In this document: piece after piece, positions 5,125-64,000 of the stretch
Numbering within the stretch: position 1 is the first letter of the stretch
How the letters are laid out: the number at the start of each line of letters is the position of its first letter
NCBI GenBank assembly: GCA_028875225.1
Contig: JAPPFB010000017.1
Coordinates: forward strand, 81,920 to 145,919
Direction of reading: 5' to 3'
DNA: 64,000 nt
Source: Chloroflexota bacterium
GTDB lineage: Bacteria; Chloroflexota; Dehalococcoidia; Bin125
Program-made: the position numbers and the translations under genes
The notes under the pieces: generated by a model
Databases searched by the model: none
Told to the model about the DNA's origin: nothing
Seen by the model: only the letters and a program-made list of their open reading frames with translations

Positions 5125-7471
5125 ATCTCTGGTTCCGCTCACGCTCACGATTCTCCTGTTCCCGCTTGCTAACCAACCCGGTTCCATCCATGCGTCGCAC
5201 AATCCCCGCTTGGTGATCAGTGAAGTGCATCCAAACGTTGCCGCCGACGGCTCGTCCTGGGATTCGTACGAGTGGATCGAAATCCACAATCTCGAACGCC
5301 ATCCGGCCAACCTGGACGGCTGGATCATCGAGGACGCCCAGTCCATCGCGCCGCTTCCTGACATCGAGCTGCCAGCGGGCGGCGCCGTGTTGGTCGCTGG
5401 CAGCGCCGCCGACATCGAGGTACCTTCGGGCAAGACTCTGATCATCCTGGACCGTCCGAGGATCGGCACCGGTCTGCGCAATGCCGGCGACCGGGTGGCG
5501 CTGATCAATCCGTACGGAGTTCGCTACGACGCCGTCAGTTGGGGAGACGTGCGCTGGCCGCGCGCCAGCGAGCCGCCCAATCCGCGCCAATCGATCGTCA
5601 GAACTTCCACTGGCGGGCAGTCGTTGTCGGACCGATTGACGCCCTGGACCGTCGGCGAAGCGATCAGCGCGGCACCGGACCGGCATCGCCATCCACTTCC
5701 TGAAACGTCGGTCCGGATGGTCAAGGCGCTCATCGATCCCGGCGAAGGCGACTCGGAGACGCTCACGATTCGCAACCTCTCCGATCGCCCACTGATCACT
5801 GTCAACTGGACGCTGACCGTCAACAACTCCCTGATCACGCTGCCCTCGGTCCGAATCGAACCCGGCGTGTCCTACGACATCCGAGAGGCGGATGGCACAC
5901 TGGGCGCCGGCATATCCAGCGACGGCGGCCATCTGGTCCTCCGAGACAGCAGAGGCAACTGGCTGGCGACCGCCAGCTGGGGCGACGACCACACGTTTCA
6001 CAAGATTCCTCCGCCCGCGCCCGGGCAGGAGTTGCGATTCAATCCGTTCGCGAGGATTCACCCGCGCGTCCCCTGGTTCGACGTCGATCGCGAAGACAGA
6101 CTCATGGTTGGTCGGGGTCGGGGGACGAAGTCACTGCTGGCTTCCAGCATTAGCTCTCTGTCGCTGCGCGAACATCACCGTGCGAGCCCACACCAGGATT
6201 CCGATCGAGCGCCGATCTGGATCAGCGAGGTCTACCCTAATGCCGGGCAGGGCAGAAGTGACGCCGCGCATGAGTGGTTTGAATTGACCAACTCCACCGA
6301 ATCGCCACTGCAGCTCGATGAGTGGTCAATCGCCGACAACACCTCCGCCGACTCCCTCGACGGGGTCACGATTCCACCAGGCTCATCCGTCGTCATTGGC
6401 GGCGCCGCGCAGGCTGATTCAGGCGTCGTGGCCGCTATCGAAGACGGTCGAATCGGCAATGGCCTGGCCAACAGTGGGGACCAACTCCGGCTGATCAATC
6501 CGGCCGGCGAGGTGGTCAGTGCGATCAGCTGGGGCGACGACCGGTCGTTCGACGCGATCACTGCGCCACAGCCCGATGAGTCGCTGCATCGCGAGTCGCC
6601 ATCCGACATCCCGTTCCTCGGCAGACCTTCGCCCGGGATGTTGACCGTGTCTCCGACCCCGGCGCCGGCGCTTACCAATGTCGAAACGCCGACAGCGCCG
6701 GCCGGTCAGGACGATCTGCTCGATTCCACGCAGCCTGCGCAAACAGAACCGTCGATTGCCCCGGTCATCGACGAAACCCTGCCGGTGCTGATGATCACCG
6801 AAATCCTGTCTGCTCCGTTGCCGGGACAACCGGAGTGGGTTGAGATTCACAATCCAAACGAGGAGTCTGTCGATCTCAATGGATGGACAATCGGCGATCC
6901 GCAACGACGAACGGCGTTGCACGGCACCATGACCGCCGGTTCCTACGTCGTGGTCACCACCCAACCGCTGGAGTCGGATGTCGATACCATCGTCGTCGAA
7001 CGGATTGGCAACGGTCTCAACAATGACGCCGACTCCATTGCCATCTTCACTCCAACTGGACGCGTCGTTGACGAAGTCAGCTACGGACACGGTGAGTTGC
7101 CTGCTCCTGATCGAGGACTGTCGATCGCATTGGATCCCGAGCGCTGGGTCGTCACGGCATTGCCGACTCCCGGTGCAGCCGATGTCACTCCGCTCCTGGC
7201 AGACGCCTTCCGTTCTGCCGCTCCGAAAGCTCCGATTTCCGATGAGGGTCGCCTGCCGCTGGTGAGCGCAGAAGCGGACGCCGGCGTGAATGCCTGGATG
7301 ATCGTGAGCTTCGCTCTGATCGGCGTGATCATCACCCTGGTCGTCCGTCGCGTCCAGCCCGACCAGGTACAGCCGGAGGCGACGGTTGAGGCGAGCCACT
7401 ACTCCGGGCCGGACGCTGTTTCAGCGTCCTCAGTGGACCCCGAGGAACACAATGATCCGACGAGAACATGA
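5021..7471 (+). CDS. Surface protein with three lamin-tail domains and a C-terminal TM anchor
   Basis: Three LTD (PF00932-like) units: LVISEVHPN...EWIEIHN...LDGWII...NAGDRVALINPYG (about 5210-5560), IWISEVYPN...EWFELTN...LDEWSI (about 6220-6540), LMITEIL...EWVEIHNP...LNGWTI (about 6790-7100); C-terminal hydrophobic AWMIVSFALIGVIITLVV. The 5' end is uncertain: the 5021 ATG frame has poor GC3 until about 5125 and overlaps the upstream ORF. Confidence 0.7.
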   Translation: MTRFDRSSPRRPSTSKRSWSRNKPLFAVALRSFPKSLVPLTLTILLFPLANQPGSIHASHNPRLVISEVHPNVAADGSSWDSYEWIEIHNLERHPANLDGWIIEDAQSIAPLPDIELPAGGAVLVAGSAADIEVPSGKTLIILDRPRIGTGLRNAGDRVALINPYGVRYDAVSWGDVRWPRASEPPNPRQSIVRTSTGGQSLSDRLTPWTVGEAISAAPDRHRHPLPETSVRMVKALIDPGEGDSETLTIRNLSDRPLITVNWTLTVNNSLITLPSVRIEPGVSYDIREADGTLGAGISSDGGHLVLRDSRGNWLATASWGDDHTFHKIPPPAPGQELRFNPFARIHPRVPWFDVDREDRLMVGRGRGTKSLLASSISSLSLREHHRASPHQDSDRAPIWISEVYPNAGQGRSDAAHEWFELTNSTESPLQLDEWSIADNTSADSLDGVTIPPGSSVVIGGAAQADSGVVAAIEDGRIGNGLANSGDQLRLINPAGEVVSAISWGDDRSFDAITAPQPDESLHRESPSDIPFLGRPSPGMLTVSPTPAPALTNVETPTAPAGQDDLLDSTQPAQTEPSIAPVIDETLPVLMITEILSAPLPGQPEWVEIHNPNEESVDLNGWTIGDPQRRTALHGTMTAGSYVVVTTQPLESDVDTIVVERIGNGLNNDADSIAIFTPTGRVVDEVSYGHGELPAPDRGLSIALDPERWVVTALPTPGAADVTPLLADAFRSAAPKAPISDEGRLPLVSAEADAGVNAWMIVSFALIGVIITLVVRRVQPDQVQPEATVEASHYSGPDAVSASSVDPEEHNDPTRT

Positions 7472-23148: not shown

Positions 23149-23186
23149 TGGGTCTGGGCCCCGTGTCAAACACGGGGCATCGCGTA
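23149..23186. repeat. Family D REP-like hairpin (GTCTGGGCCCCGTG-tcaaa-CACGGGGCATCG)
   Basis: Between convergent DDN-like and LLM genes; copies at 25284, 27920 and 28053. Confidence 0.8.
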
Positions 23187-25144: not shown

Positions 25145-25283
25145 CGGGGTCTCCTGTCTCATCGGTTGCAGTCAGGCTAGGTGGGAGTCTAGGTGCGGGG
25201 AAGGGTACGGGCTGGTGGGCGAGTGGCAAGCTCTTGATGATGGGCTCGGCGAGGGGGACTTCGACCTGCGAGCGAGGATCGAC

Positions 25284-25400
25284 GTCTGGGCCCCGCATCA
25301 AGTGCGGGGCATCGGAGTTGGGGGCGAGAGTGCGGGGCATCGGAGAGGAAGGAGTGCGAGGCATCGGAACGGGGGATGGGGGAGTGTGTGGGGAGGGGGC
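25284..25400. repeat. Family D hairpin followed by a degenerate tandem array of its 3' half (AGTGCGGGGCATCGGAG, three copies, period ~27)
   Basis: gtctgggccccgcatcaagtgcggggcatcggag, then agtgcggggcatcggag, then agtgcgaggcatcggaa, within a G-rich spacer. Confidence 0.75.
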
Positions 25401-27919: not shown

Positions 27920-28120
27920 TCGATGCCCCGTGCTTGACACGGGGCCCAGAGCACGTCGCTTTACTCGCGAGGCGGCGATGCACCTTGCACAGCCTTTGAT
28001 AGCGGGATCCGTCCGAGACGAGAAGCTACTCTCATCCGCGCTCGTCGGCTGAGGTCTGGGCCCCGTGTCAAGCACGGGGCATCGCGAGCATGGGCATCGG
28101 GAGCACGGGGTATCGGGATG
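27920..28120. repeat. Inverted pair of Family D hairpins flanking about 100 nt (MITE-like), plus trailing half-repeats
   Basis: 27920-27951 is the reverse complement of 28053-28086 (31 of 32 nt); lies between convergent gatB and AKR paralog 1. Confidence 0.75.
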
Positions 28121-28153
28121 GAGTGGTCGTTTGCGTCGATGGTCGTCGATGCG

Positions 28154-29173
28154 CTAGCGGCGCATGGCGGCGACTCTTGGGTTGTGGATGATCTGCGGGG
28201 TGTTCTGGTAGGTGGGGACGCCGACGTCGTCGAAGATCTGGTTGATTCCGCTTCGGATTTCCTCGGTCAGTTTCCAGTCGGTGGCGGCGACGTTCTCCTC
28301 GAGTTCTCGCTCGTTTCGCATCCCGACGAGGGCGCAGGAGACTCCGGGATGGTCGAGGACCCAGGCGAGCGCGAGCTGGGCAACGGTCTTGCCGTAGCCG
28401 TCGGCGAATTGGGCGAGTCGGTTGCAGACTTCGACTTCGCGGCGGAAGTGCTCACGCTCGAACAGGGGCAGGTTGAAGGCGAGCGGGTTGCGACGCCAGT
28501 CGCCCTCTTCGAAGGTGTGCTCGGGCGTGAAGGCTCCGGTCAGCAGGCCAAAGGCGAGTGAGCCGTAGGACATGAAGCCGACTCCGTTGGCCATGCACCA
28601 GGGCAGGACTCGGGCCTCCATGCGCCGATCGAACATGTGGTATCCGATCTGGTTGGCCGTGATGTGTCCGTACCGCTCGCATTCCTGCATCAGGTCGATG
28701 TCGTAGTTCGAGACGCCATAGTGTCGAATCTTGCCGCTCTGCTTCAGTTCTTCGAGGGCCTCCATCGTTTCCTCGATCGGCGTGTCGAAGTCGGGCCAGT
28801 GGATCAGGAGCAGGTCCAGATAGTCCGTGTTCAGACGCCGGAGACAGCCCTCCGCGCACTCGATGACGTTCTGCTTCGACGAGTTGAGTCCCGTCATGGT
28901 CGGCGTGTCGTCGAAATCGAATCCGACTTTGGTGACGAGGATGATCTCGTTGCGCCGGCTGCCGAGCGCTCTGGCGAGTAGTTCTTCCGAGAGAAAGGGT
29001 CCGTAGCCTTCGGCGGTGTCGAAGAGGGTGATGCCGCGGTCGATGGCCATGTTGACGGCGCGGGAGGCCTCGTCGACGTCGATATGGCCGTACATCGTCG
29101 TGCTCATCTCCCAGGTGCCGAAGCCGACCGCGGAGGAGACGAGATCTGTGTTGCCGAATCGTCGCTGTTCCAT
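28154..29173 (-). CDS. Aldo/keto reductase (paralog 1 of 3)
   Basis: AKR fold: FGTWEM, IDRGITLFDTAEGYG, IHWPD, GVSNYD; tandem with two paralogs. Confidence 0.88.
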   Translation of the reverse strand: MEQRRFGNTDLVSSAVGFGTWEMSTTMYGHIDVDEASRAVNMAIDRGITLFDTAEGYGPFLSEELLARALGSRRNEIILVTKVGFDFDDTPTMTGLNSSKQNVIECAEGCLRRLNTDYLDLLLIHWPDFDTPIEETMEALEELKQSGKIRHYGVSNYDIDLMQECERYGHITANQIGYHMFDRRMEARVLPWCMANGVGFMSYGSLAFGLLTGAFTPEHTFEEGDWRRNPLAFNLPLFEREHFRREVEVCNRLAQFADGYGKTVAQLALAWVLDHPGVSCALVGMRNERELEENVAATDWKLTEEIRSGINQIFDDVGVPTYQNTPQIIHNPRVAAMRR

Positions 29174-29188
29174 CGTCGTTGCCGAACC

Positions 29189-30178
29189 TCAGATCGCCTG
29201 AGGGGCGTTCTGGTAGGTCGGGACTCCGACTTCTTCGAAGATCTCGTTGATTGCGTTGCGGATCTCCTCGTTGAGTTTCCAGTCGGTGGCGGCGACGTTT
29301 TCCTCGAGTTCTCGCTCGTTTCTCATGCCGACGAGGGCGCAAGAGACGGCGGGATGGTCGAGTACCCAGGCGAGGGCGAGTTGGGCGACGGTCTTGTTGT
29401 AGCCGTCGGCGAGTTCGACGAGGCGGTTGGTGACTTCGACTTCTTTGCGGAAATGCTCCTCCTGGAAGAGGGGGAGGTTGAAGGCCATGCCGCTGCGCCG
29501 CCAGTCGCCCTCTTCGAAGGTGGTGTCGGGCGTGAAGGCGCCGGTCAGCAGGCCGAAGCCGAGCGAGCCATAGGCCATGTAGCCGACGCCGTTGGCGAGA
29601 CACCAGGGCAGGACGCGCGATTCCATGCGGCGGTCGAACATGTTGTAGCCGACCTGGTTGGCGGCGATGTGTCCGTACTGCTCGCACTCTTCCATCATGT
29701 CGATGTTGAAGTTGGAGACGCCGTAGTGTCGGATTTTGCCGCTCTGCTTGAGTTCTTCGAGGCCCTCCATCGTTTCCTCGATCGGCGTGTCGTGATCGGG
29801 CCAGTGGATCAGCATCAGGTCGACGAAGTCGGTGTTGAGGCGGCGAAGACAATCATCCGTGTGCTCGATGATGTGTGCCTTCTTCGAGTTGCGGCCGATC
29901 ACCTTGGGCGTGTCGTCGTAGTCGAAGCCAACCTTGGTCACGAGCACGATTTCGTTGCGGCGGTTGCCGAGCGCTTTGGCCAGCAGCTCCTCGGAGTGGT
30001 AGGGGCCGTAGACCTCGGCGGTGTCGAAGAGGGTGATGCCGCGGTCGATTGCCATGTTGACGGCGCGAGCGGCCTCATCGACGTCGATGTGGCCGTACAT
30101 GGTGGTGCTCATCTCCCAGGTGCCGAAGCCGACGGCCGAGGCGACCAGGTCGGTGTTGCCGAATTGTCGTTGTTCCAT
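29189..30178 (-). CDS. Aldo/keto reductase (paralog 2 of 3)
   Basis: About 85-90% aa identity to paralog 1 by eye. Confidence 0.88.
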   Translation of the reverse strand: MEQRQFGNTDLVASAVGFGTWEMSTTMYGHIDVDEAARAVNMAIDRGITLFDTAEVYGPYHSEELLAKALGNRRNEIVLVTKVGFDYDDTPKVIGRNSKKAHIIEHTDDCLRRLNTDFVDLMLIHWPDHDTPIEETMEGLEELKQSGKIRHYGVSNFNIDMMEECEQYGHIAANQVGYNMFDRRMESRVLPWCLANGVGYMAYGSLGFGLLTGAFTPDTTFEEGDWRRSGMAFNLPLFQEEHFRKEVEVTNRLVELADGYNKTVAQLALAWVLDHPAVSCALVGMRNERELEENVAATDWKLNEEIRNAINEIFEEVGVPTYQNAPQAI

Positions 30179-30218
30179 AGTGTTCCTTGGTGGGTGATGG
30201 TGGGTTGGACTGGGCCGG

Positions 30219-30272
30219 AAGGGACCCCCTCAGCCTTCGGCAGCTCCCCCTGCAAGGGGGAGCCGGGAGGTG
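30219..30272 (-). repeat. Family A hairpin element between AKR paralogs 3 and 2
   Basis: Reverse complement reads CTCCCCC-ttgc-AGGGGGAG + ctGCCGAAGGC + tGAGGGGGTCCC; same orientation as the flanking minus-strand genes. Confidence 0.75.
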
Positions 30273-30275
30273 GAC

Positions 30276-31307
30276 CTAGTCGCGGAGGTTGCGACGGGCG
30301 CCGGTGGCTCGGGCGACGTGGACGACCTGGTCGAGGTTCTGATAGGTGGGCACCCCGACCTCGGCGAAGATCTCGTTGACTCCGCTGCGGATTTCCTCGG
30401 TCAGCTTCCAGTCGGTGGCGGCGACGTTCTCTTCGAGTTCGCGCTCGTTGCGCATACCGACCAGGGCGCAGCTGACCCCTGGGTGGTCGAGGACCCAGGC
30501 GATGCCGAGCTGGGCGCAGGTCTTGCCGTAGCCGTCGGCGAGCTCCGCGAGTCGGTTGGCGATCTCGACCTCCTGCCTGAAGCGGTCGCTCTCGAACAGG
30601 GGCAGGTTGAAGGCGGTGCCGTTGCGCCGCCAGTCGCTCTCGTCGAATTGGTGATCGGGCTCGAACGCGGCGGTCAAGAGACCGAAGGCGAGCGAGCCGT
30701 AGGACATGAAGCCGACGCCGTTGGCCATGCACCAGGGCAACACGCGAGACTCCATCCGCCGGTCGAACATGTGGTAGCCGACCTGGTTGGCGACGATCGT
30801 GCCGTGACGCTGGCACTCCTCCATCATGTCGATGTTGAAGTTGGAGACGCCGTAATGGCGGATCTTGCCGGCCTGCTTCAATTCTTCCAGACCCTCCATC
30901 GTCTCTTCGAAGGGCGTGTCGTGGTCGGGCCAGTGAATCAGCATCAGGTCGACGTAGTCGGTGTTCAGCCGGCGCAGGCAACCCTCGGTGTGCTCGATGA
31001 TGTGGTCCTTCTTGGAGTTGAGGCCGATCACCTGGGGCACGTCGTTGTAGTCGAAGCCGACCTTGGTCACCAACACAACTTCGTTGCGCCGGCTGCCCAG
31101 GCCCTCGGCGAGCAGCTCCTCGGAGTGATTCGGGCCGTATACCTCGGCCGTGTCGAACAGGGTGATGCCGCGGTCGATCGCCATGTTCACGGCGCGTGCG
31201 GCCTCGCTGCGGTCGATGTGACCGTACATGTTGCCGCTCATCTCCCACGTGCCGAAGCCGACGGCGGAAGCCACCAGGTCGCTGTTTCCGAATCGTCGCT
31301 GTTCCAT
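30276..31307 (-). CDS. Aldo/keto reductase (paralog 3 of 3)
   Basis: About 75% identity to paralogs 1 and 2; start taken at MEQRRFGNSD (31307) to match the paralogs. Confidence 0.85.
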   Translation of the reverse strand: MEQRRFGNSDLVASAVGFGTWEMSGNMYGHIDRSEAARAVNMAIDRGITLFDTAEVYGPNHSEELLAEGLGSRRNEVVLVTKVGFDYNDVPQVIGLNSKKDHIIEHTEGCLRRLNTDYVDLMLIHWPDHDTPFEETMEGLEELKQAGKIRHYGVSNFNIDMMEECQRHGTIVANQVGYHMFDRRMESRVLPWCMANGVGFMSYGSLAFGLLTAAFEPDHQFDESDWRRNGTAFNLPLFESDRFRQEVEIANRLAELADGYGKTCAQLGIAWVLDHPGVSCALVGMRNERELEENVAATDWKLTEEIRSGVNEIFAEVGVPTYQNLDQVVHVARATGARRNLRD

Positions 31308-46180: not shown

Positions 46181-46276
46181 GCCCTCACCCTAACCCTCTC
46201 CCTTGGGGAGAGGGAAAACGAGCGAAGAGCGAAAGATCGGCTCCCTCTCCCACTGGGAGAGGGCTGGGGTGAGGGC
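46181..46276. repeat. Inverted pair of Family B modules forming a long potential hairpin (acn to mdh spacer)
   Basis: GCCCTCACCCTAACCctctcccTTGGggagaggg ... ccctctcccACTGggagagggCTGGGGTGAGGGC with a 26-nt spacer. Confidence 0.8.
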
Positions 46277-46408
46277 CCGCCAAGAGGCAAGTCTCGTCAT
46301 CTCAGCCACTCACATAGCAGACTCAAAGCCCCCTATCCGATAACAATTGGACAAGTCCCGTCTATTCCCCGCGGGTATGGCTGCCCGTGTTCAGAAAGGT
46401 CCGAGACC

Positions 46409-48865: not shown

Positions 48866-48945
48866 TTTCTCCCCCCGCTTTGCGGGGGGAGATGCCGAAA
48901 GCCTGCCCCCGCGAAGGCGGGGGGCAGAGGGGGCTCCCGCTTTGC
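48866..48945 (+). repeat. Family A two-hairpin element (fumC to PPOX spacer)
   Basis: TCCCCCCGC-tttg-GCGGGGGGA + gatGCCGAAAGC + CTGCCCCCGC-gaag-GCGGGGGGCAG + AGGGGGCTCCC. Confidence 0.85.
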
Positions 48946-52962: not shown

Positions 52963-52983
52963 TCACAGAAAGCCCTCTCCCAT

Positions 52984-53056
52984 CTCCCCCCGCTGAGCGG
53001 GGGGAGATGCCGCAAGCCTGCCCCGCACTTTATGCGGGGGCAGAGGGGGGGCTCCC
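52984..53056 (+). repeat. Family A two-hairpin element (LLM to trmH spacer)
   Basis: Near-identical architecture to 48866-48945; the 3' G-run abuts the GTG start at 53057. Confidence 0.85.
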
Positions 53057-58063: not shown

Positions 58064-60949
58064 ATGATGGCCGCCTCTGCTGAGGGAAGCGCCCAGGTCG
58101 CCAGCCCGACCGTACCGGGCCCGAACCATGACCGAGCCCTGGTTGACGCGCCCCTGGCCGCCGACGTCAGGTTGCTGAGCAGCCTGCTGGGCAACACCAT
58201 CCGCGTGGTCGACGGCGAAGAAGTGTTCAACGCCGTCGAGCAGCTTCGCGGCCTCGCCCAGCGACGCCGAGGCGTCCGCCAGGAACCGGAGCCTCAACTA
58301 ACGGCCGAGATTGTCGATCTGGTCAAGAGTTGGCCGTTGTGGCTGGCGGCTGAAGTCGGCAATGCGTTCCTGACCTACTTCCTGCTCACCAACACCGCCG
58401 AAGAGACGCACCGCATCCGTCGCCGCCGGCTGCGTTCGTCCGAAACCGGCGCGGCGCCCCGATCAATCGCCGCCATGGTCGAACAACTGTTGTCGTCGGG
58501 CAATGACGAAGCAACCATTCGCCAGCGGGCGATGGCAATCCATTTGCAGCCCGTGTTCACCGCTCATCCGACAGAGTCGCAGCGCCTGACCATGCTGGGC
58601 ACGCTGCAGGACGTACATCGGCTGCTGCTGGAACGCGAGCACGCGATTCCTTCCGAACTCGAAGACATCGACTTCGCCCTCAGGACCCACATTGAAGGGC
58701 TCTGGCAGGCCGATCATCTGCGCCACCGGCGACCCACCGTCCTTGAGGAGTCGCGATTGCTGTTGCGCACCTTTGAGACCACCCTGTGGGACGCCGTGCC
58801 CGAGGTCACGCGCCGATTCCGCCGAGCCACCGGCGTCAGCGCCAGCGAATCGCCGGCGCCGATCGTCCTGGGTTCCTGGATGGGCGGCGACGCCGACGGC
58901 AATCCCAACGTGACCCCCGATCTCACCTGGCAGACCGCGCTGACCATGCGCGCCCGCGTACTGCGCATGCACCTGGAGGCTGTCAGGTCGATGGATGCGA
59001 TGTTGCCGCACTCGGTTCGGCGAGTCGCGACATCGCAGGCGCTGGACGCTTCGATTCAACGAGATGAGCGCCGGATGCCGCGTGTCGAGGAACGCCTGCA
59101 GAATCGCAACCAGGCCGAACGCTATCGGCACAAGATCCGCTACATGGCCGCCCGCCTGCAGGCGACGTTGGAGGCGGACTACGCGTTGCTGGACACGCGC
59201 GCTGCGCAAATCCATGACGCCAGACTGACGACCAATGAACCAGACGGCGTTCCCTACGACTCGGCTCGAGACTTCGTGGAGGATCTCCAGGACATCGCCG
59301 ACAGTCTCCGCCATCACGGCGCGACCTCCGGCGCCGAGCAGGTGGTCCAACCGCTGATCGATCGCGCCAGGGCGTTCGGCTTCCATCTGGCCACGCTCGA
59401 CATCCGCGATCATGCCGATCGTTTTCACGCCGCAGCCGATGGCGTGCTCCAGGGTCTCGATATCCAGCCGCCAAGCGGCAGTTATCTGGAGTTGGACAAA
59501 GATCGCCGCGAAGAGTTTCTCGCCGGCGAACTCGACCGCGACTACTTCCCGGTCGGTCACGCCATGTCAACCCACGACGACGAGACCTTGCGCCGGTTTC
59601 GCACGGCTCGGCGGATTCAGCGCATTTGCGGCGATGAGGCGGTTCAGACCTGCATCGTCTCGATGGCGGAACATGCCGCCGACGTGCTGGCCCCTGTGCT
59701 GGTCGCCAGACAGGCCGGACTCAACGACATCCAGCTCGGCGCGCCTGCCGGCCGCATCAGAATCGCCCCGCTGTTCGAACGCGTCGCCGACCTGGACCGG
59801 GCCCCGTCCGTGCTCCGCTCACTCTTCAGCCATGGCGCATATCAGCGACATCTCAAGGCCCACAACAACCTGCAGGAAGTCATGGTCGGCTACTCGGACT
59901 CGGCCAAGGACGCCGGCGTGCTGCCCTCGCTCTGGGGTCTCTACCGGGCTCAGGACAACATGCATGAGGTCGCGCGTGAGTTTGACGTGGATCTTATGTT
60001 TTTTCACGGCCGCGGCGGCACCGTCAGCCGCGGCGGTGGGCCGTCGCACGACGCCATCCTCGCGCTGCCCCCGCACACGACCGAGGGCGGAATCAAACTC
60101 ACCGAGCAGGGCGAAATGATCCAGTTCACGTACGGGATGCCCGGACTGGCGAAATGGAACCTCGAGCAAACACTGGCCGCCGCAGTCGTCAAACGCTTCG
60201 ACCATGACCACAACGACACGCCCGACGCCGAGCGTGAACGCTACCACGCGGCGATGGACGAACTGGCGGCGACCGCCGAGCAGGCCTACCGCACGCAGGT
60301 CGTCGATGACGCCGACCTTCATGCCTACTTCCAGCGCGTCACACCGATCGGCATGCTGGGCAACCTCGCCATCGGCTCACGACCCACCTTCCGACCCGGC
60401 TCCGACGCCTCGCTCACCTCGCTGCGGGCAATCCCGTGGGTCTTCGCCTGGATGCAGACCCGCCACGTCATCACCGGATGGATGGGCGTCGGCACGGCGC
60501 TCGAACAGTTCATCCAGAATCACGGCGACGCCGGCGAAACACTGTTGCGAGACATGCGCGCCCGCTGGCCGTTCTTCGCCACGCTGCTCTCGAATGTGGA
60601 AATGGTGCTGGCCAAGGCCGACTTCGATGTGGCCGAGCACTACGCGCGAACCCTGGGCGACGCGGACCGCGATTTACGCACCTTCGCCCGGCTGAGCGAG
60701 GAGTATCACCGGACGGTCGACATGGTCAATCGCCTCTCAGACCAGGATCGCCTGCTCGATGGCACGCCGGTCTTGCAGCGCTCGATCGCGCTGCGCAATC
60801 CCTACGTCGACGCGCTCAGCTTCCTGCAAGTGGAGCTGCTCAGCCGAATCCGCGATCTGCCCGAGGATGATCCCGAATACGCCGACACCCTGGAAGCCAT
60901 CCTGCGCAGCGTCAACGGCGTCGCCGCCGGGCTGCGCAACACCGGCTAG
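58064..60949 (+). CDS. ppc: Phosphoenolpyruvate carboxylase
   Basis: VFTAHPTE; FHGRGGTVSRGGGP; C-terminal ...NTG. Confidence 0.95.
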   Translation: MMAASAEGSAQVASPTVPGPNHDRALVDAPLAADVRLLSSLLGNTIRVVDGEEVFNAVEQLRGLAQRRRGVRQEPEPQLTAEIVDLVKSWPLWLAAEVGNAFLTYFLLTNTAEETHRIRRRRLRSSETGAAPRSIAAMVEQLLSSGNDEATIRQRAMAIHLQPVFTAHPTESQRLTMLGTLQDVHRLLLEREHAIPSELEDIDFALRTHIEGLWQADHLRHRRPTVLEESRLLLRTFETTLWDAVPEVTRRFRRATGVSASESPAPIVLGSWMGGDADGNPNVTPDLTWQTALTMRARVLRMHLEAVRSMDAMLPHSVRRVATSQALDASIQRDERRMPRVEERLQNRNQAERYRHKIRYMAARLQATLEADYALLDTRAAQIHDARLTTNEPDGVPYDSARDFVEDLQDIADSLRHHGATSGAEQVVQPLIDRARAFGFHLATLDIRDHADRFHAAADGVLQGLDIQPPSGSYLELDKDRREEFLAGELDRDYFPVGHAMSTHDDETLRRFRTARRIQRICGDEAVQTCIVSMAEHAADVLAPVLVARQAGLNDIQLGAPAGRIRIAPLFERVADLDRAPSVLRSLFSHGAYQRHLKAHNNLQEVMVGYSDSAKDAGVLPSLWGLYRAQDNMHEVAREFDVDLMFFHGRGGTVSRGGGPSHDAILALPPHTTEGGIKLTEQGEMIQFTYGMPGLAKWNLEQTLAAAVVKRFDHDHNDTPDAERERYHAAMDELAATAEQAYRTQVVDDADLHAYFQRVTPIGMLGNLAIGSRPTFRPGSDASLTSLRAIPWVFAWMQTRHVITGWMGVGTALEQFIQNHGDAGETLLRDMRARWPFFATLLSNVEMVLAKADFDVAEHYARTLGDADRDLRTFARLSEEYHRTVDMVNRLSDQDRLLDGTPVLQRSIALRNPYVDALSFLQVELLSRIRDLPEDDPEYADTLEAILRSVNGVAAGLRNTG

Positions 60950-61007
60950 CCGCATCATCGTCATTCCCGCGCTCGACGACACCGCCGTCATTCCCCCGCT
61001 TGCAGCG

Positions 61008-61186
61008 GGAATCTCGATTCCTTCTCCCTGAGGAGACCTGCGCGTAAACCCATCAAAGTCGGCCCCGCGTAGGCGGGGCCCAGCGCATGTTGTCTGGACA
61101 CGCCGCCCCCGCCTGCGCGGGGGCGACTTCTTCAAGGAGCTACGCGCAGGTCTCCTGAGGGAAAGGGCTAGCGTGAGGGCCGTACC
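61008..61186. repeat. Family C nested-palindrome composite element (MITE-like), copy 1
   Basis: Outer ~25-bp inverted repeat (cttctccctgaggagacctgcgcgta / tacgcgcaggtctcctgagggaaag) enclosing two GC hairpins (GGCCCCGCG-tagg-CGGGGCC; CGCCCCCGC-ctgc-GCGGGGGCG); sits between convergent ppc and the DUF35 gene. Confidence 0.8.
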
Positions 61187-61190
61187 TGGC

Positions 61191-61649
61191 CTACTCGACC
61201 ACTTCCCAGTGAACCAGCGTGAACGGGTCGATCTCGTCGTTTCCCTCGTGGTCCTCGAAGTATGGACGCACCTCGGCGCCGATCTCGACCGTCTGCATCG
61301 GGTCGCCGACGAGATTGCCGACCATGCGCACGTTCTCGTGATTCGGCAGCTCGACCAGCACGACGAGATACGGACAGCTGTCTTGCAGGGCCGGATGCAC
61401 CGGATGCCAGACGCGCTCCCACGAGTAGATCCGGCCATTGCCCTCGACCGGTTTCCAGCCGAGGTCGAAGGAGTGGCAGCGGTGGCAATTCCATTCGGGG
61501 CCGAACTGCGGTCGGTCGCACGTGTTGCAGTTCTGGACAAGCAGCTCGTGGCGCTTGACCGCTTCCCAGTACTCCGTGTCGAGTCCGTCGATCGCCGGCG
61601 CGGGCGCGGGCATGCCCTCGCCCAGGTAGTAGGCTCCGGGATTCGCCAT
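61191..61649 (-). CDS. Zn-ribbon/OB-fold DUF35 protein (partner of SCP2-type thiolase)
   Basis: CNTCDRPQFGPEWNCHRCHS zinc ribbon plus OB fold; translationally coupled to the upstream thiolase. Confidence 0.8.
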   Translation of the reverse strand: MANPGAYYLGEGMPAPAPAIDGLDTEYWEAVKRHELLVQNCNTCDRPQFGPEWNCHRCHSFDLGWKPVEGNGRIYSWERVWHPVHPALQDSCPYLVVLVELPNHENVRMVGNLVGDPMQTVEIGAEVRPYFEDHEGNDEIDPFTLVHWEVVE

Positions 61650-62830
61650 TAGAGCACCGCCTCAGAACCGACGATCATGTCGGACACCGGCGTCACCATC
61701 GGACCCGACGCGACCAGCGACACATTCACGTCGTCGACCTGGTTGCAGGACTCGCCCCGCACCTGGCGGACCGCCTCGATGTTCAATTCCAGGCCGTGCA
61801 TGTAGCACTCGGCCAGGTTGCCGCCGCTGGTGTTGATCGGCATCTTGCCATTCGGCGCGGTCAGGTTCTCGAACGTGATGAACTCGTTGGCCTCTTCGTA
61901 AGTGGTCAGCCCATGCTCGATGATGCTCATCACGACGCCGCCGGTGAAGTTCTCATAGACCTGCGCCACGTCGACCTCTTCCGGCTTGACCTGCGCCATC
62001 TCGTACATGCGCGGCGCGACCGTCTTGAAGTTGGAGGTGGCGTAATCGGTGGCGTTGTGCGAGCCGGATCCGGCCCGGTTGCCCGAGCCGACCGCGCCGC
62101 CGAGGAAGTAGACCGGCGTCTTCGCGTAGTCCTTGGCCCGATCGGCCGAGACGAAGATCATCGCCGCCGCGCCGTCGTTCTCCTGGCAGCAGTCGAACAG
62201 GTGGAACGGTTCGACAATCCAGCGCGAGGCGTCGTAGTCCTCCGGCGTTAGCGGACGGCCGTACATCACCGCGCGCGGGTTGTTCTGCGCGTGGTGGTAC
62301 GAGGCCAGCGAGCACGCCTTGAGCGTGTCCTGCGTGATCCCGTGGTCCTCGTACAGCCGATGGATGCGCATCGCAAACGACTGCGCCGGCGACATCAGTC
62401 CGTACGGCGCCGTGTAGGCCTGGTCGCCGCGCACGTGCGGTACGCGAGCGCCCTGCCCGAAGCGTCCGAATTGACCCTGCGCCAGTCCCCGGAAGACGAC
62501 CACCGTGTCGGCCAGACCGGTCGCAACCGCCGAGGCCGCGTGAGCGCAGGCCGCCGAGCCGCCGCCGCCACCGCCACCCCACTCCATGTTGGAGAAGCGC
62601 AGGTCCTTGATGTCAAGCGCCGCCGCGATCCGCGACGGGTCGTTGCGGTCGTTGGAGTACGAGGCAAACCCGTCAATCTCCCGCGGGTCAATGCCTGCAT
62701 CGGCGCTGGCCTTGAGGATCGCCTCGATCACGAGCTTGAACTCCGGATCGGGCGAGCGTCCCCGCTTGTAGTACGTCGTCTCACCGACGCCGATGATCGC
62801 CACTTCGCCGCGCATCGTGCGGTTACCCAT
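61649..62830 (-). CDS. Thiolase-like protein, SCP2/lipid-transfer type
   Basis: Thiolase fold lacking the standard acetyl-CoA thiolase motifs; typical DUF35 partner; ATG at 62830 with GGAAGGA SD. Confidence 0.8.
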   Translation of the reverse strand: MGNRTMRGEVAIIGVGETTYYKRGRSPDPEFKLVIEAILKASADAGIDPREIDGFASYSNDRNDPSRIAAALDIKDLRFSNMEWGGGGGGGSAACAHAASAVATGLADTVVVFRGLAQGQFGRFGQGARVPHVRGDQAYTAPYGLMSPAQSFAMRIHRLYEDHGITQDTLKACSLASYHHAQNNPRAVMYGRPLTPEDYDASRWIVEPFHLFDCCQENDGAAAMIFVSADRAKDYAKTPVYFLGGAVGSGNRAGSGSHNATDYATSNFKTVAPRMYEMAQVKPEEVDVAQVYENFTGGVVMSIIEHGLTTYEEANEFITFENLTAPNGKMPINTSGGNLAECYMHGLELNIEAVRQVRGESCNQVDDVNVSLVASGPMVTPVSDMIVGSEAVL

Positions 62831-62938
62831 ATCTGATGTCCTTCCCAGTGCCTCGTTACGCAGGCAGTTTAGATGATGGTCGTGAGAACCACTCAGCTCG
62901 CACCCCGAATTCATCGATTCATGACTCGGACTTCGGTT

Positions 62939-62973
62939 CCCTCTCCCTGAGGGAGAGGGTTAGGGTGAGGGCG
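62939..62973 (+). repeat. Family B hairpin repeat
   Basis: ccctctcccTGAGggagagggTTAGGGTGAGGGC; an inverted partial copy follows at 63021-63047. Confidence 0.8.
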
Positions 62974-63018
62974 CCTCGGCGATGGAGGACGTGCAATGAC
63001 CAGAGAGCGAGCAACGGC

Positions 63019-63185
63019 CAGACCCTCACCCCGGCCCTCTCCCGGTGGAGGCTTGCGCGTCAACCAACCAAGGTCGGCCCCGCGCAGGCGGGGCCCTGCA
63101 GCGCCTATCCGGTCACCGCGCCCCCGCCTGCGCGGGGGCGACTTCATCGAGGGATTACGCGCAACTCTCCAGTGGGAGAGGCAGT
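63019..63185. repeat. Family C nested-palindrome composite element, copy 2
   Basis: Same two inner hairpins (GGCCCCGCG-cagg-CGGGGCC; CGCCCCCGC-ctgc-GCGGGGGCG) and a homologous outer stem (cctctcccggtggaggcttgcgcgtcaa / ttacgcgcaactctccagtgggagagg). Confidence 0.8.
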
Positions 63186-63251
63186 CGTGCAAACACGGTG
63201 CGAACGAAGGTCACTACCGCGAGATGGCTCCAGTGAGATTTCCGAAGATTC

Positions 63252-64000
63252 CTACTGCAGCGCCCCGGCGACCAACGCTTCCGTAATCTCCTCGTCCGGC
63301 ACCGACAGGATCTCCGAGAGCACATAGTGCGTATGCTCACCGATCGCCGGCGCGGCTCGGCGCAGACGCGCCGTCCCTCCGGAGAACCGGGTGACCAGGC
63401 CGTCGTAGGGCGTTGGACCCATGACCGAGTGGTCGAGCGTGACGAAGAAATCACGATGAGTCAGCTGCGGGTCCTCGTAGAGGTCCGACGGCCATTCAAC
63501 CGTCGCCGCCGGAACACCGGCAGCCGTGAGCGCGCCGACGACCGCATTGGCAGTCTGAGGCGCGCACCACTCGGCAACCGCCGCCTCGATCTCGGCCTTG
63601 GCCGCGATTCGCGTTGACAGGTCGTCGTACTCGCTACCGGACCAGTTCTCCAGGCCCGCTGCGTCGCGCAGCGCGTGCCATTGCTCGGCCGTCTCCGTCG
63701 CAATCGCCACGTAGCGCTCCTCGTTGCCGACTCGGAAAATGCCGTTCGGCGCGGCGTACAACGATCCGTGGCCGGGCGCGTCAGCGACGCGGCCATTCTC
63801 CAGGTAATCGAGCAACAGCGGCGCATTGAAGTGGATCCCTGCCTCGGTCTGCGCCAGGTCGATGTACTGGCCCTTGCCCGTCTGGTCGCGGTAGCGGATC
63901 GCAGCGGCGAGCGTGCCGGAACCAAACCGTGGGTTGATGAAGTCGGTGTATGCGCCCCACGTGCCCGAGGGCTGCCGGTCGGGCCAGCCGGTAATCCGGT
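63252..64000 (-). CDS. CoA-transferase family III (CaiB/BaiF-like), 5'-partial at window edge
   Basis: C-terminal CaiB-family sequence (...ITGWPDRQPSGTWGAYTDF...LVTRFSGGTA); the reading frame stays open to the window end, so the N-terminus lies beyond 64000. Confidence 0.8.
   Translation of the reverse strand, partial: RITGWPDRQPSGTWGAYTDFINPRFGSGTLAAAIRYRDQTGKGQYIDLAQTEAGIHFNAPLLLDYLENGRVADAPGHGSLYAAPNGIFRVGNEERYVAIATETAEQWHALRDAAGLENWSGSEYDDLSTRIAAKAEIEAAVAEWCAPQTANAVVGALTAAGVPAATVEWPSDLYEDPQLTHRDFFVTLDHSVMGPTPYDGLVTRFSGGTARLRRAAPAIGEHTHYVLSEILSVPDEEITEALVAGALQ

Follow-up and report, generated by a model that had tools for sequence, protein, structure and literature searches.

In a 64,000-nucleotide stretch of a Chloroflexota genome (Dehalococcoidia; GenBank assembly GCA_028875225.1, contig JAPPFB010000017.1, positions 81,920 to 145,919), hereafter called the window, we analysed two copies of an intergenic palindromic repeat that we refer to as Family C. 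Family C is an ordinary selfish intergenic repeat, an unnamed new family within the known class of miniature inverted-repeat transposable elements (MITEs) and repetitive extragenic palindromic (REP) sequences, and we consider it reasonably probable that it is a small, non-coding, non-autonomous mobile element of that class and not a dedicated RNA or a terminator. The mobile unit would be 122 bp long and bounded by the 14-bp terminal inverted repeats (G)GAGACCTGCGCGTA, and its core would carry a head-to-head pair of REP-like hairpins with tags facing outward and a 24-nt spacer. With an inverted hairpin pair lying within inverted repeats, the whole element becomes one long palindrome. Both copies would have landed in the 3–4-nt loop of a pre-existing hairpin of the BoxC/intrastrand-triplex type. 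Such a landing would also account for the nested look of the repeat, because the split BoxC stem lengthens the palindrome to give an outer arm of about 25 bp.

Comparison of the window with itself placed the two copies at 61020–61167 and 63035–63182, with 78% identity over 147 nt, and both are near-perfect palindromes. In RNA folding, the copies reached −102 to −106.6 kcal/mol on either strand, compared with −61 to −70 kcal/mol for dinucleotide shuffles (z-scores of −8.5 to −10.7; 0/200 shuffles were as stable). The hairpin motif GTCGGCCCCGCGNAGGCGGGGCC, when allowed up to 3 mismatches, occurs four times in the window, each time within one of the two copies, against an expectation of 0.00. A z-score of about −10 and an expected number of zero hairpin motifs exclude chance palindromes. 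The two homologous elements put forward in a preliminary description of this DNA are therefore real. The nested palindromes described there are also present; each spans about 150 nt and consists of a 122-bp core inside BoxC halves. The two cores are laid out as follows.

61033–61154, + strand: Family C core of copy 1, 122 bp from inverted repeat to inverted repeat, GAGACCTGCGCGTA ... TACGCGCAGGTCTC, complementary at 14/14 positions
61058–61080, + strand: left REP-like hairpin of copy 1, with the tag aGTC, the 8-bp stem GGCCCCGC and the loop GTAG
61105–61127, − strand: right REP-like hairpin of copy 1, repeating the left one in inverted form; its − strand reads aGTC GCCCCCGC GCAG GCGGGGGC
63048–63169, + strand: Family C core of copy 2, also 122 bp; its inverted repeats, GAGGCTTGCGCGTC ... 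TACGCGCAACTCTC, are decayed; oriented as copy 1
63073–63095, + strand: left REP-like hairpin of copy 2, reading gGTC GGCCCCGC GCAG GCGGGGCC
63120–63142, − strand: right REP-like hairpin of copy 2, inverted

The hairpin pair of copy 1 is a head-to-head dimer around a spacer at 61081–61104, and in both copies the spacer is 24 nt long and the tags face outward. The stems, GGCCCCGC/GCGGGGCC and GCCCCCGC/GCGGGGGC, are 8 bp each and begin with GG or GC; the enclosed loop is GYAG (4 nt), and the hairpins have CAG, CTG, GGC and GCG as tails. These two GC hairpins had been described as independent. We found instead that one is the inverted copy of the other (21 nt, 95% complementary) and that the minimum-energy fold pairs the two to form one long hairpin. 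A three-way junction, which had also been proposed, was rejected as the main fold, since forcing two local hairpins was 6–11 kcal/mol worse with both RNA and DNA parameters. The outer inverted repeat of about 25 bp exists, but it is a composite. In copy 1, its arms (61020–61046 and 61141–61167) are 27 nt each and 89% complementary; in general, the inner 14 nt of the arm are the terminal inverted repeat, and the outer 9–12 nt are halves of a BoxC stem. The inverted repeats are perfect in copy 1 and decayed in copy 2, where three pairs of this part differ from copy 1: one is compensated, one is a wobble and one is broken. This mixed record bears out only weakly the remark that substitutions in the outer arms preserve pairing.

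Copy 2 had been said to be embedded among repeats called Family B, and BoxC halves do flank its core. The Family B modules are the known BoxC repeat (also PIT or "TM"), an intrastrand-triplex motif. Their blocks stand in the same order as in the published motif (Holder et al. 2015, PMC4666352), namely CCCTCTCCC, a loop, GGGAGAGGG, a TTAG or CCGG linker and GGGTGAGGG. In contrast to the published BoxC, two of the units here carry another repeat within their loop. The halves of these two units, and an intact motif close to copy 2, are the following.

61014–61032, + strand: left half of the BoxC/triplex unit split by copy 1, TCGATT CCTTCTCCC TGAG
61155–61180, + strand: right half of the same unit, third-strand tail included, CTGAG GGAAAGGG CTAGCGTGAGGGC
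63023–63047, − strand: tail and one stem of the type-B BoxC unit split by copy 2, CCCTCACCCCGG CCCTCTCCC GGTG, in reverse orientation
63170–63187, − strand: other stem of the BoxC unit split by copy 2, CAGTG GGAGAGG CAGTCG
62939–62971, + strand: intact type-A BoxC/triplex motif, the inverted partner of the split unit and an 'empty-site' paralogue

The intact motif at 62939–62971 (CCCTCTCCCTGAGGGAGAGGGTTAGGGTGAGGG) is identical over 33 nt to TMECO no. 17 of Escherichia coli K-12 (PMC4666352). A 41-nt BoxC query found matches in 5409 of the 5426 complete E. coli genomes (median, 19 places in each), the best of them 100% identical over 39 nt; the triplex motif was already on record from >260 genomes. 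Such identity between a Chloroflexota metagenome-assembled genome (MAG) and enterobacteria is striking. The window holds four intact BoxC units (1799–1831, 46182–46214, 46243–46275 and 62939–62971) and two interrupted ones (61014–61180 and 63023–63187), arranged in inverted pairs of type A and type B, as in E. coli. No BoxC unit was found in three loci from relatives (L126, L129 and L130).

Each core interrupts its BoxC unit exactly at the hairpin loop, which is 3–4 nt long. To rejoin the flanks, we took the core as running from one inverted repeat to the other, both included, and deleted one of the two copies of a 5-nt direct repeat. Joined in this way, the flanks aligned to intact BoxC without gaps, at 35/41 positions for copy 1 (against 62933–62973) and at 35/40 for copy 2 (against the reverse complement of 46238–46277). 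The direct repeat flanking copy 1 is CTGAG, found at 61028–61032 and again at 61155–61159; that of copy 2 is CAGTG versus CGGTG (63043–63047), with 4/5 positions equal. Core and BoxC halves together form a continuous palindrome of 148 nt. Both cores lie on the + strand (nhmmer scores of 132 and 123 bits on +, and 60 and 49 bits on −), whereas the host BoxC is on the + strand at copy 1 and on the − strand at copy 2, so that the two cores are opposite relative to the host repeat. This difference in orientation argues for two separate insertions, not for one composite unit. By our estimate, in which the loops make up about 24 nt of several kilobases of intergenic DNA, two chance landings in BoxC loops are very unlikely. 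This leaves two options, insertion targeted to hairpin loops and movement of the composite as a single unit, of which the second is disfavoured by the orientation. For all of the informative elements (3/3), the site occupied is the loop of a different short hairpin repeat, BoxC in two cases, which suggests that hairpin loops act as landing sites.

We located the copies relative to genes using Pfam labels on the public gene calls of contigs that match the window. The window is 99.98–99.99% identical to contigs of the MAGs GCA_034423335.1 and GCA_028874415.1 and is also found on the 279-kb scaffold ROBB21-1. Copy 1 is flanked by the convergent 3′ ends of the phosphoenolpyruvate carboxylase gene ppc (58064–60949, +) and a DUF35/ChsH2-OB gene (61191–61649, −). 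Copy 2 is located in the 421 nt that separate a coenzyme A (CoA)-transferase gene (stop at 63252, −) from the start of a thiolase gene (62830, −), surrounded by co-directional genes of one apparent operon. Both placements agree with the preliminary description. The corresponding gene junctions in relatives, ordered by the identity of the thiolase, are given below.

Window: thiolase 100%; CoA-transferase–thiolase gap 421 nt; DUF35–ppc gap 241 nt
L126–128: thiolase 96%; CoA-transferase–thiolase gap 61 nt; ppc not adjacent
L129: thiolase 92%; CoA-transferase–thiolase gap 158 nt; DUF35–ppc gap 32 nt
L130/131: thiolase 90%; CoA-transferase–thiolase gap 82 nt; RNase T gene between DUF35 and ppc

Searches for Family C returned no match in the 20-kb loci L126–L131 (nhmmer, E ≤ 1) and none in the 5.6–9.2-kb loci L134–L136 at E ≤ 10. 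Filled and empty sites can thus be compared in two ways, as intact BoxC paralogues that match the rejoined flanks and as orthologous gaps in relatives that lack the elements. In one further relative (L134; 90% thiolase identity), the orthologous DUF35–ppc gap contains a 175-bp element at 5693–5867 whose ends are the identical, perfect 14-bp inverted repeats GAGACCTGCGCGTA. Its interior is unrelated and does not align with that of Family C. This element splits the hairpin repeat CGCCCCC-TGA-GGGGGAG, of which an intact copy lies 40 nt downstream. Of the options raised in the preliminary description, a non-autonomous mobile element is the one that fits, given that Family C is absent at the orthologous sites of relatives, that the same inverted repeats enclose a different interior in another lineage and that both copies interrupt BoxC.

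Full-length homologues that include the hairpin pair were found at L041 219–358, L051 7614–7756 and L023 5086–5222 (nhmmer E-values of 1e-28 to 1e-36), on two other Dehalococcoidia MAG chromosomes. The inverted repeats of the L041 homologue have 1 mismatch. The same hairpin occurs alone in L060. The Dehalococcoidia MAG OZ242948 (L100 650–873) has a left arm like that of Family C followed by three tandem GC hairpins with a 65-nt period, arranged head to tail and not as an inverted pair. All of these copies, in the window and in L041, L051, L023, L100 and L060, are intergenic and lie just 3′ of a gene end. A metagenome scan with a G-variant hairpin pattern gave only three unrelated single hairpins, and searches of viral contigs and plasmids gave no matches. 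Nothing scored when concatenated six-frame translations of the element were compared with a protein database to find spurious open reading frames (ORFs) called over other copies.

If Family C is mobile, its transposition would be aimed at single-stranded or extruded hairpin loops and driven by an enzyme encoded elsewhere in the genome, of which the window plus 7.6 kb was covered. Either a DDE transposase, which would fit the inverted repeats, or an HUH enzyme resembling the REP-associated tyrosine transposases (RAYTs), which would fit the REP hairpins, is a candidate. A DDE-type transposase working in trans is what the perfect inverted repeats would suggest, as would the short direct repeats around the window copies. 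In favour of an HUH/RAYT-like route, the REP hairpins are invariant, hairpins also occur solo and in tandem, and the target would be a single-stranded loop. A parent insertion sequence (IS) would be expected to share the end sequence GGAGACCTGCGCGTA. If neighbouring genes are affected, for instance when the hairpin protects an mRNA 3′ end, this would be a by-product, and the element may have a side effect of this kind on mRNA 3′-end stability.

Several observations weigh against this explanation. Target-site duplication is insecure: the direct repeat agrees at 5/5 positions around copy 1 and at 4/5 around copy 2, and there is none in L134 or L041; in addition, direct and inverted repeats differ by only about 4 nt at a palindromic site, and the boundary could lie anywhere between 3 and 7 nt. 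L051 and L023 have decayed inverted repeats, and 1.2 Mb of fetched sequence gave no further match to the 14-bp inverted repeat. The presence/absence pattern is not polarised by phylogeny, so that loss in the relatives is formally possible, and the opposite orientation of the two copies could have arisen through recombination between inverted repeats. Only two copies were seen within 64 kb. As for the enzyme, no transposase-type Pfam domain was present among the called genes, which cover about 57 of the 64 kb, and a crude search of all ORFs of the window and the fetched loci with regular expressions for HUH and Y motifs returned no RAYT.

A bolder version of the mobile-element explanation, which we regard as quite unlikely, is that elements ending in (G)GAGACCTGCGCGTA form a structure-targeting family that inserts specifically in the single-stranded loops of extruded GC hairpins or triplex motifs by way of an unrecognised enzyme, for example an HUH or IS110-like, shape-reading recombinase. 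Triplex-motif loci have been tied to rearrangement, and no mobility functions were reported near them (PMC4666352). If true, such a family would explain in concrete terms how the reported genomic instability of these loci comes about and would account for the spread of CGTC-type REPs, which lack a known transposase.

One alternative is that Family C is strictly a REP doublet forming hairpins (REPIN), in which the inverted REP pair itself is the mobile unit, copied through single-stranded DNA by a single-copy RAYT of the Y1 HUH type, with the outer inverted repeats being incidental. An inverted REP doublet that folds as one long hairpin is what this would predict; the hairpins are invariant while the outer arms decay, solo and tandem hairpins occur in related genomes, and the single-stranded loop is a plausible target for a transposase acting on single-stranded DNA. 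However, the tag is RGTC and not GTAG or GTGG, the crude search revealed no RAYT-like ORF in the window or the fetched loci, and CGTC-type REPs are reported to have, apparently, no transposase of their own (Di Nocera, De Gregorio & Rocco 2013, PMC3733652). Moreover, L134 retains perfect inverted repeats without the REP pair, so that the inverted repeats, rather than the hairpins, look mobilised. We therefore find a strict REPIN unlikely, although it deserves to be kept in mind. It is still less probable that the BoxC halves and the core are one composite repeat from which copies with BoxC alone arose by deletion through short direct repeats. The continuous 148-nt palindrome would fit this, as would the L051 core, whose right flank is also BoxC-like, but the core is oriented oppositely relative to BoxC in the two copies, BoxC is an independent and widespread repeat, present in almost every complete E. 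coli genome searched (PMC4666352), and L134 carries identical inverted repeats inside a different hairpin repeat. We regard this composite as highly improbable.

The element could also act at the level of RNA, terminating transcription in a factor-independent way or in both directions, or stabilising 3′ ends as a hairpin, and would then be kept in place as a transcription insulator. Every copy examined is intergenic and just 3′ of a gene end, and the stems are extremely stable; E. coli REPs are known to stabilise upstream mRNA. This possibility appears very doubtful to us for several reasons. Terminator-like sites, defined as a hairpin followed by a T-run, numbered 0 on both strands of 60800–63400 against 0.8 expected by chance. 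With no T-run after any stem, with relatives lacking the elements at the same gene junctions despite proteins that are 90–96% identical and with copy 2 placed between co-directional genes of one apparent operon, the earlier suggestion of a bidirectional terminator is not supported. The suggestion of a structured noncoding RNA fares no better. The window had no Rfam match at gathering thresholds, the sole sub-threshold match being a plant microRNA precursor, a generic long hairpin, at 25 bits against a threshold of 268 bits. The two strands fold equally well with no strand-specific wobble signature, which points to a palindrome at the DNA level. Covariation is likewise unconvincing: among 5 copies from 3 genomes, 4 outer pairs changed on both sides, a number reached by 73/500 shuffles, and 17/23 pairs of the inner helix never vary, the hairpins being the most conserved part. 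We return, then, to a non-autonomous mobile element in asking which known repeats Family C resembles.

Among MITEs with terminal inverted repeats, the Correia/NEMIS and ERIC elements are examples. Like MITEs, Family C and the L134 element are 120–175 bp long and non-coding, with perfect inverted repeats; Family C further shares presence/absence among relatives and possible short direct repeats. Unlike MITEs, it shows inconsistent target duplication, has an interior of REP-like hairpins and has no parent IS in the sequence examined. The bacterial interspersed mosaic elements (BIMEs) of E. coli are intergenic mosaics of palindromic repeats, and the insertion sequences IS1397 and ISKpn1 target REP loops. 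Family C resembles these in its alternating mosaic of palindromes and in being a mobile element in the loop of another palindrome, but here the host repeat is the BoxC/triplex motif and not a REP, and the inserted element is non-coding. Like REPINs (Bertels & Rainey 2011, PMC3116915), Family C is non-autonomous and intergenic, with an inverted REP pair and spacer that form a hairpin of about 100 nt. It differs from them in its RGTC head with no GTAG or GTGG, in the absence of a RAYT by the crude motif search of the window and fetched loci and in having additional 14-bp terminal inverted repeats, which recur in L134 without the REP pair.

The preliminary description recognised no named family. 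Family C itself is indeed unnamed, but its flanks are BoxC/triplex motifs and, by sequence, its inner hairpins conform in general to the layout of CGTC-type REP dimers. This superfamily has stems of 8–9 bp and loops of 4–5 nt, occurs mostly as head-to-head dimers downstream of ORFs with spacers of 20–100 nt, tolerates TGTC and CCTC tags and is present in tens to thousands of extragenic copies per genome (PMC3733652). Family C shares the unpaired XGTC tag, the 8-bp stem and 4-nt loop, the dimer with outward tags and a short spacer in the 20–50-nt range and the fold into one large stem-loop; it likewise lies downstream of ORFs, between unidirectional or convergent genes, and places its dimers within outer palindromic arms. 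By contrast, in all Chloroflexota copies its tag is AGTC or GGTC, matching at 3/4 positions, and its stems start with G/C where A/T is near-invariant at the first two positions and are without a conserved 3-nt CCA tail. REP dimers within longer palindromes have been described in H. neapolitanus and A. variabilis, and in T. roseum, another member of the Chloroflexota, REPs are inserted in a separate family of small palindromes that is also present uninterrupted (PMC3733652). By analogy, this last case is the closest precedent for the nesting of Family C.

To look for related hairpins, we scanned a genome collection with a loose, degenerate pattern for a single hairpin, and the matches listed were mostly CGTC REPs of Sphingopyxis, Novosphingobium and Massilia; four Dehalococcoidia loci and one Chloroflexota locus were also among them. 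Several proteobacterial genera carry CGTCGCCCCCGCGAAGGCGGGGGC in abundance as a CGTC-tagged REP, mostly as dimers with tags outward (loci L003–L122: Sphingopyxis, Novosphingobium, Massilia and others; Sphingomonadaceae), and the hairpin of this REP is nearly identical to the right-hand hairpin of Family C despite the phylum-level distance. Among the matches listed, 122/134 copies of this REP have a C before GTC, 95/134 have an inverted partner with tags outward within 130 nt, and the tails are CGC, CCA or CCC; spacers of the dimers cluster at about 30, 37 and 42 nt. CGTC-tagged hairpins also occur beside copy 1 itself. Those at 60959–61013 are of the GTCATTCCCGC...GCGGGAATGAC type, with one half-unit and one bulged unit, and include the following feature.

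60986–61013, + strand: neighbouring CGTC-tagged REP-like hairpin, CGTC ATTCCCCCGC TTGCA GCGGGAAT; part of the same intergenic mosaic and not of Family C

A clean unit, CGTC ATTCCCGC GCAG GCGGGAAT, is found in the ppc-proximal gap of L130 (12314–12339), with the loop and stem length of the Family C hairpin.

Taken alone, Family C is one more selfish intergenic palindrome family. It is also a clean case of repeats nested in repeats and provides a testable link between triplex motifs and local rearrangement. REP-like hairpins close to the CGTC format that are bracketed by transposon-like inverted repeats may hint at how a transposase-less class of REPs moves. In MAGs, such elements yield spurious gene calls and inflate intergenic regions. 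In this locus, a 163-residue gene without a Pfam match is publicly annotated at 62836–63327 on the + strand (L001 8323–8814), spanning copy 2 as well as the BoxC units; this ORF is almost certainly an artefact of the GC-rich repeats.

Among relatives, variation is concentrated at the DUF35–ppc junction. This junction measures 32 nt and is empty in L129 (11632–11663), in comparison with 60950–61190 in the window, and in L130 (11626–12477) it is occupied by repeats and an RNase T gene. In L134 (5626–6045) it is a 420-nt mosaic of repeats that contains the 175-bp element with inverted repeats, and in L135 (5626–7620) it contains an unannotated ORF of 659 residues. We considered this ORF as a transposase and rejected it, its sole match being a sub-threshold, SprT-like one. 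At the other junction, a Uma2-family gene (PF05685) lies between the CoA-transferase and thiolase genes in L134 (3214–3873), and another is nearby in L136 (1–201), a further sign that the operon junctions vary.

Other repeats were noted in the window, whose host is apparently an uncultured, sponge-associated member of the Chloroflexota, as inferred from study labels. The palindromic family GGTCTGGGCCCCGTGTCAAACACGGGGCATCGCG has three copies (23151–23184, 25283–25316 and 28053–28086), and a second, TCTCCCCCCGCTTTGCGGGGGGAGATGCCG..., has two (48868–48909 and 52983–53024). A unit of the latter type also lies inside the L134 element, and the repeat that this element splits is of a similar C5-TGA-G5 ...GGGGGAGATGCCGCAGGCAGAG... 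type. Finally, three tandem segments of about 300 nt at 28145–30635, with 77–85% identity, correspond to adjacent aldo-keto reductase paralogues (PF00248; L133 2297–5445).

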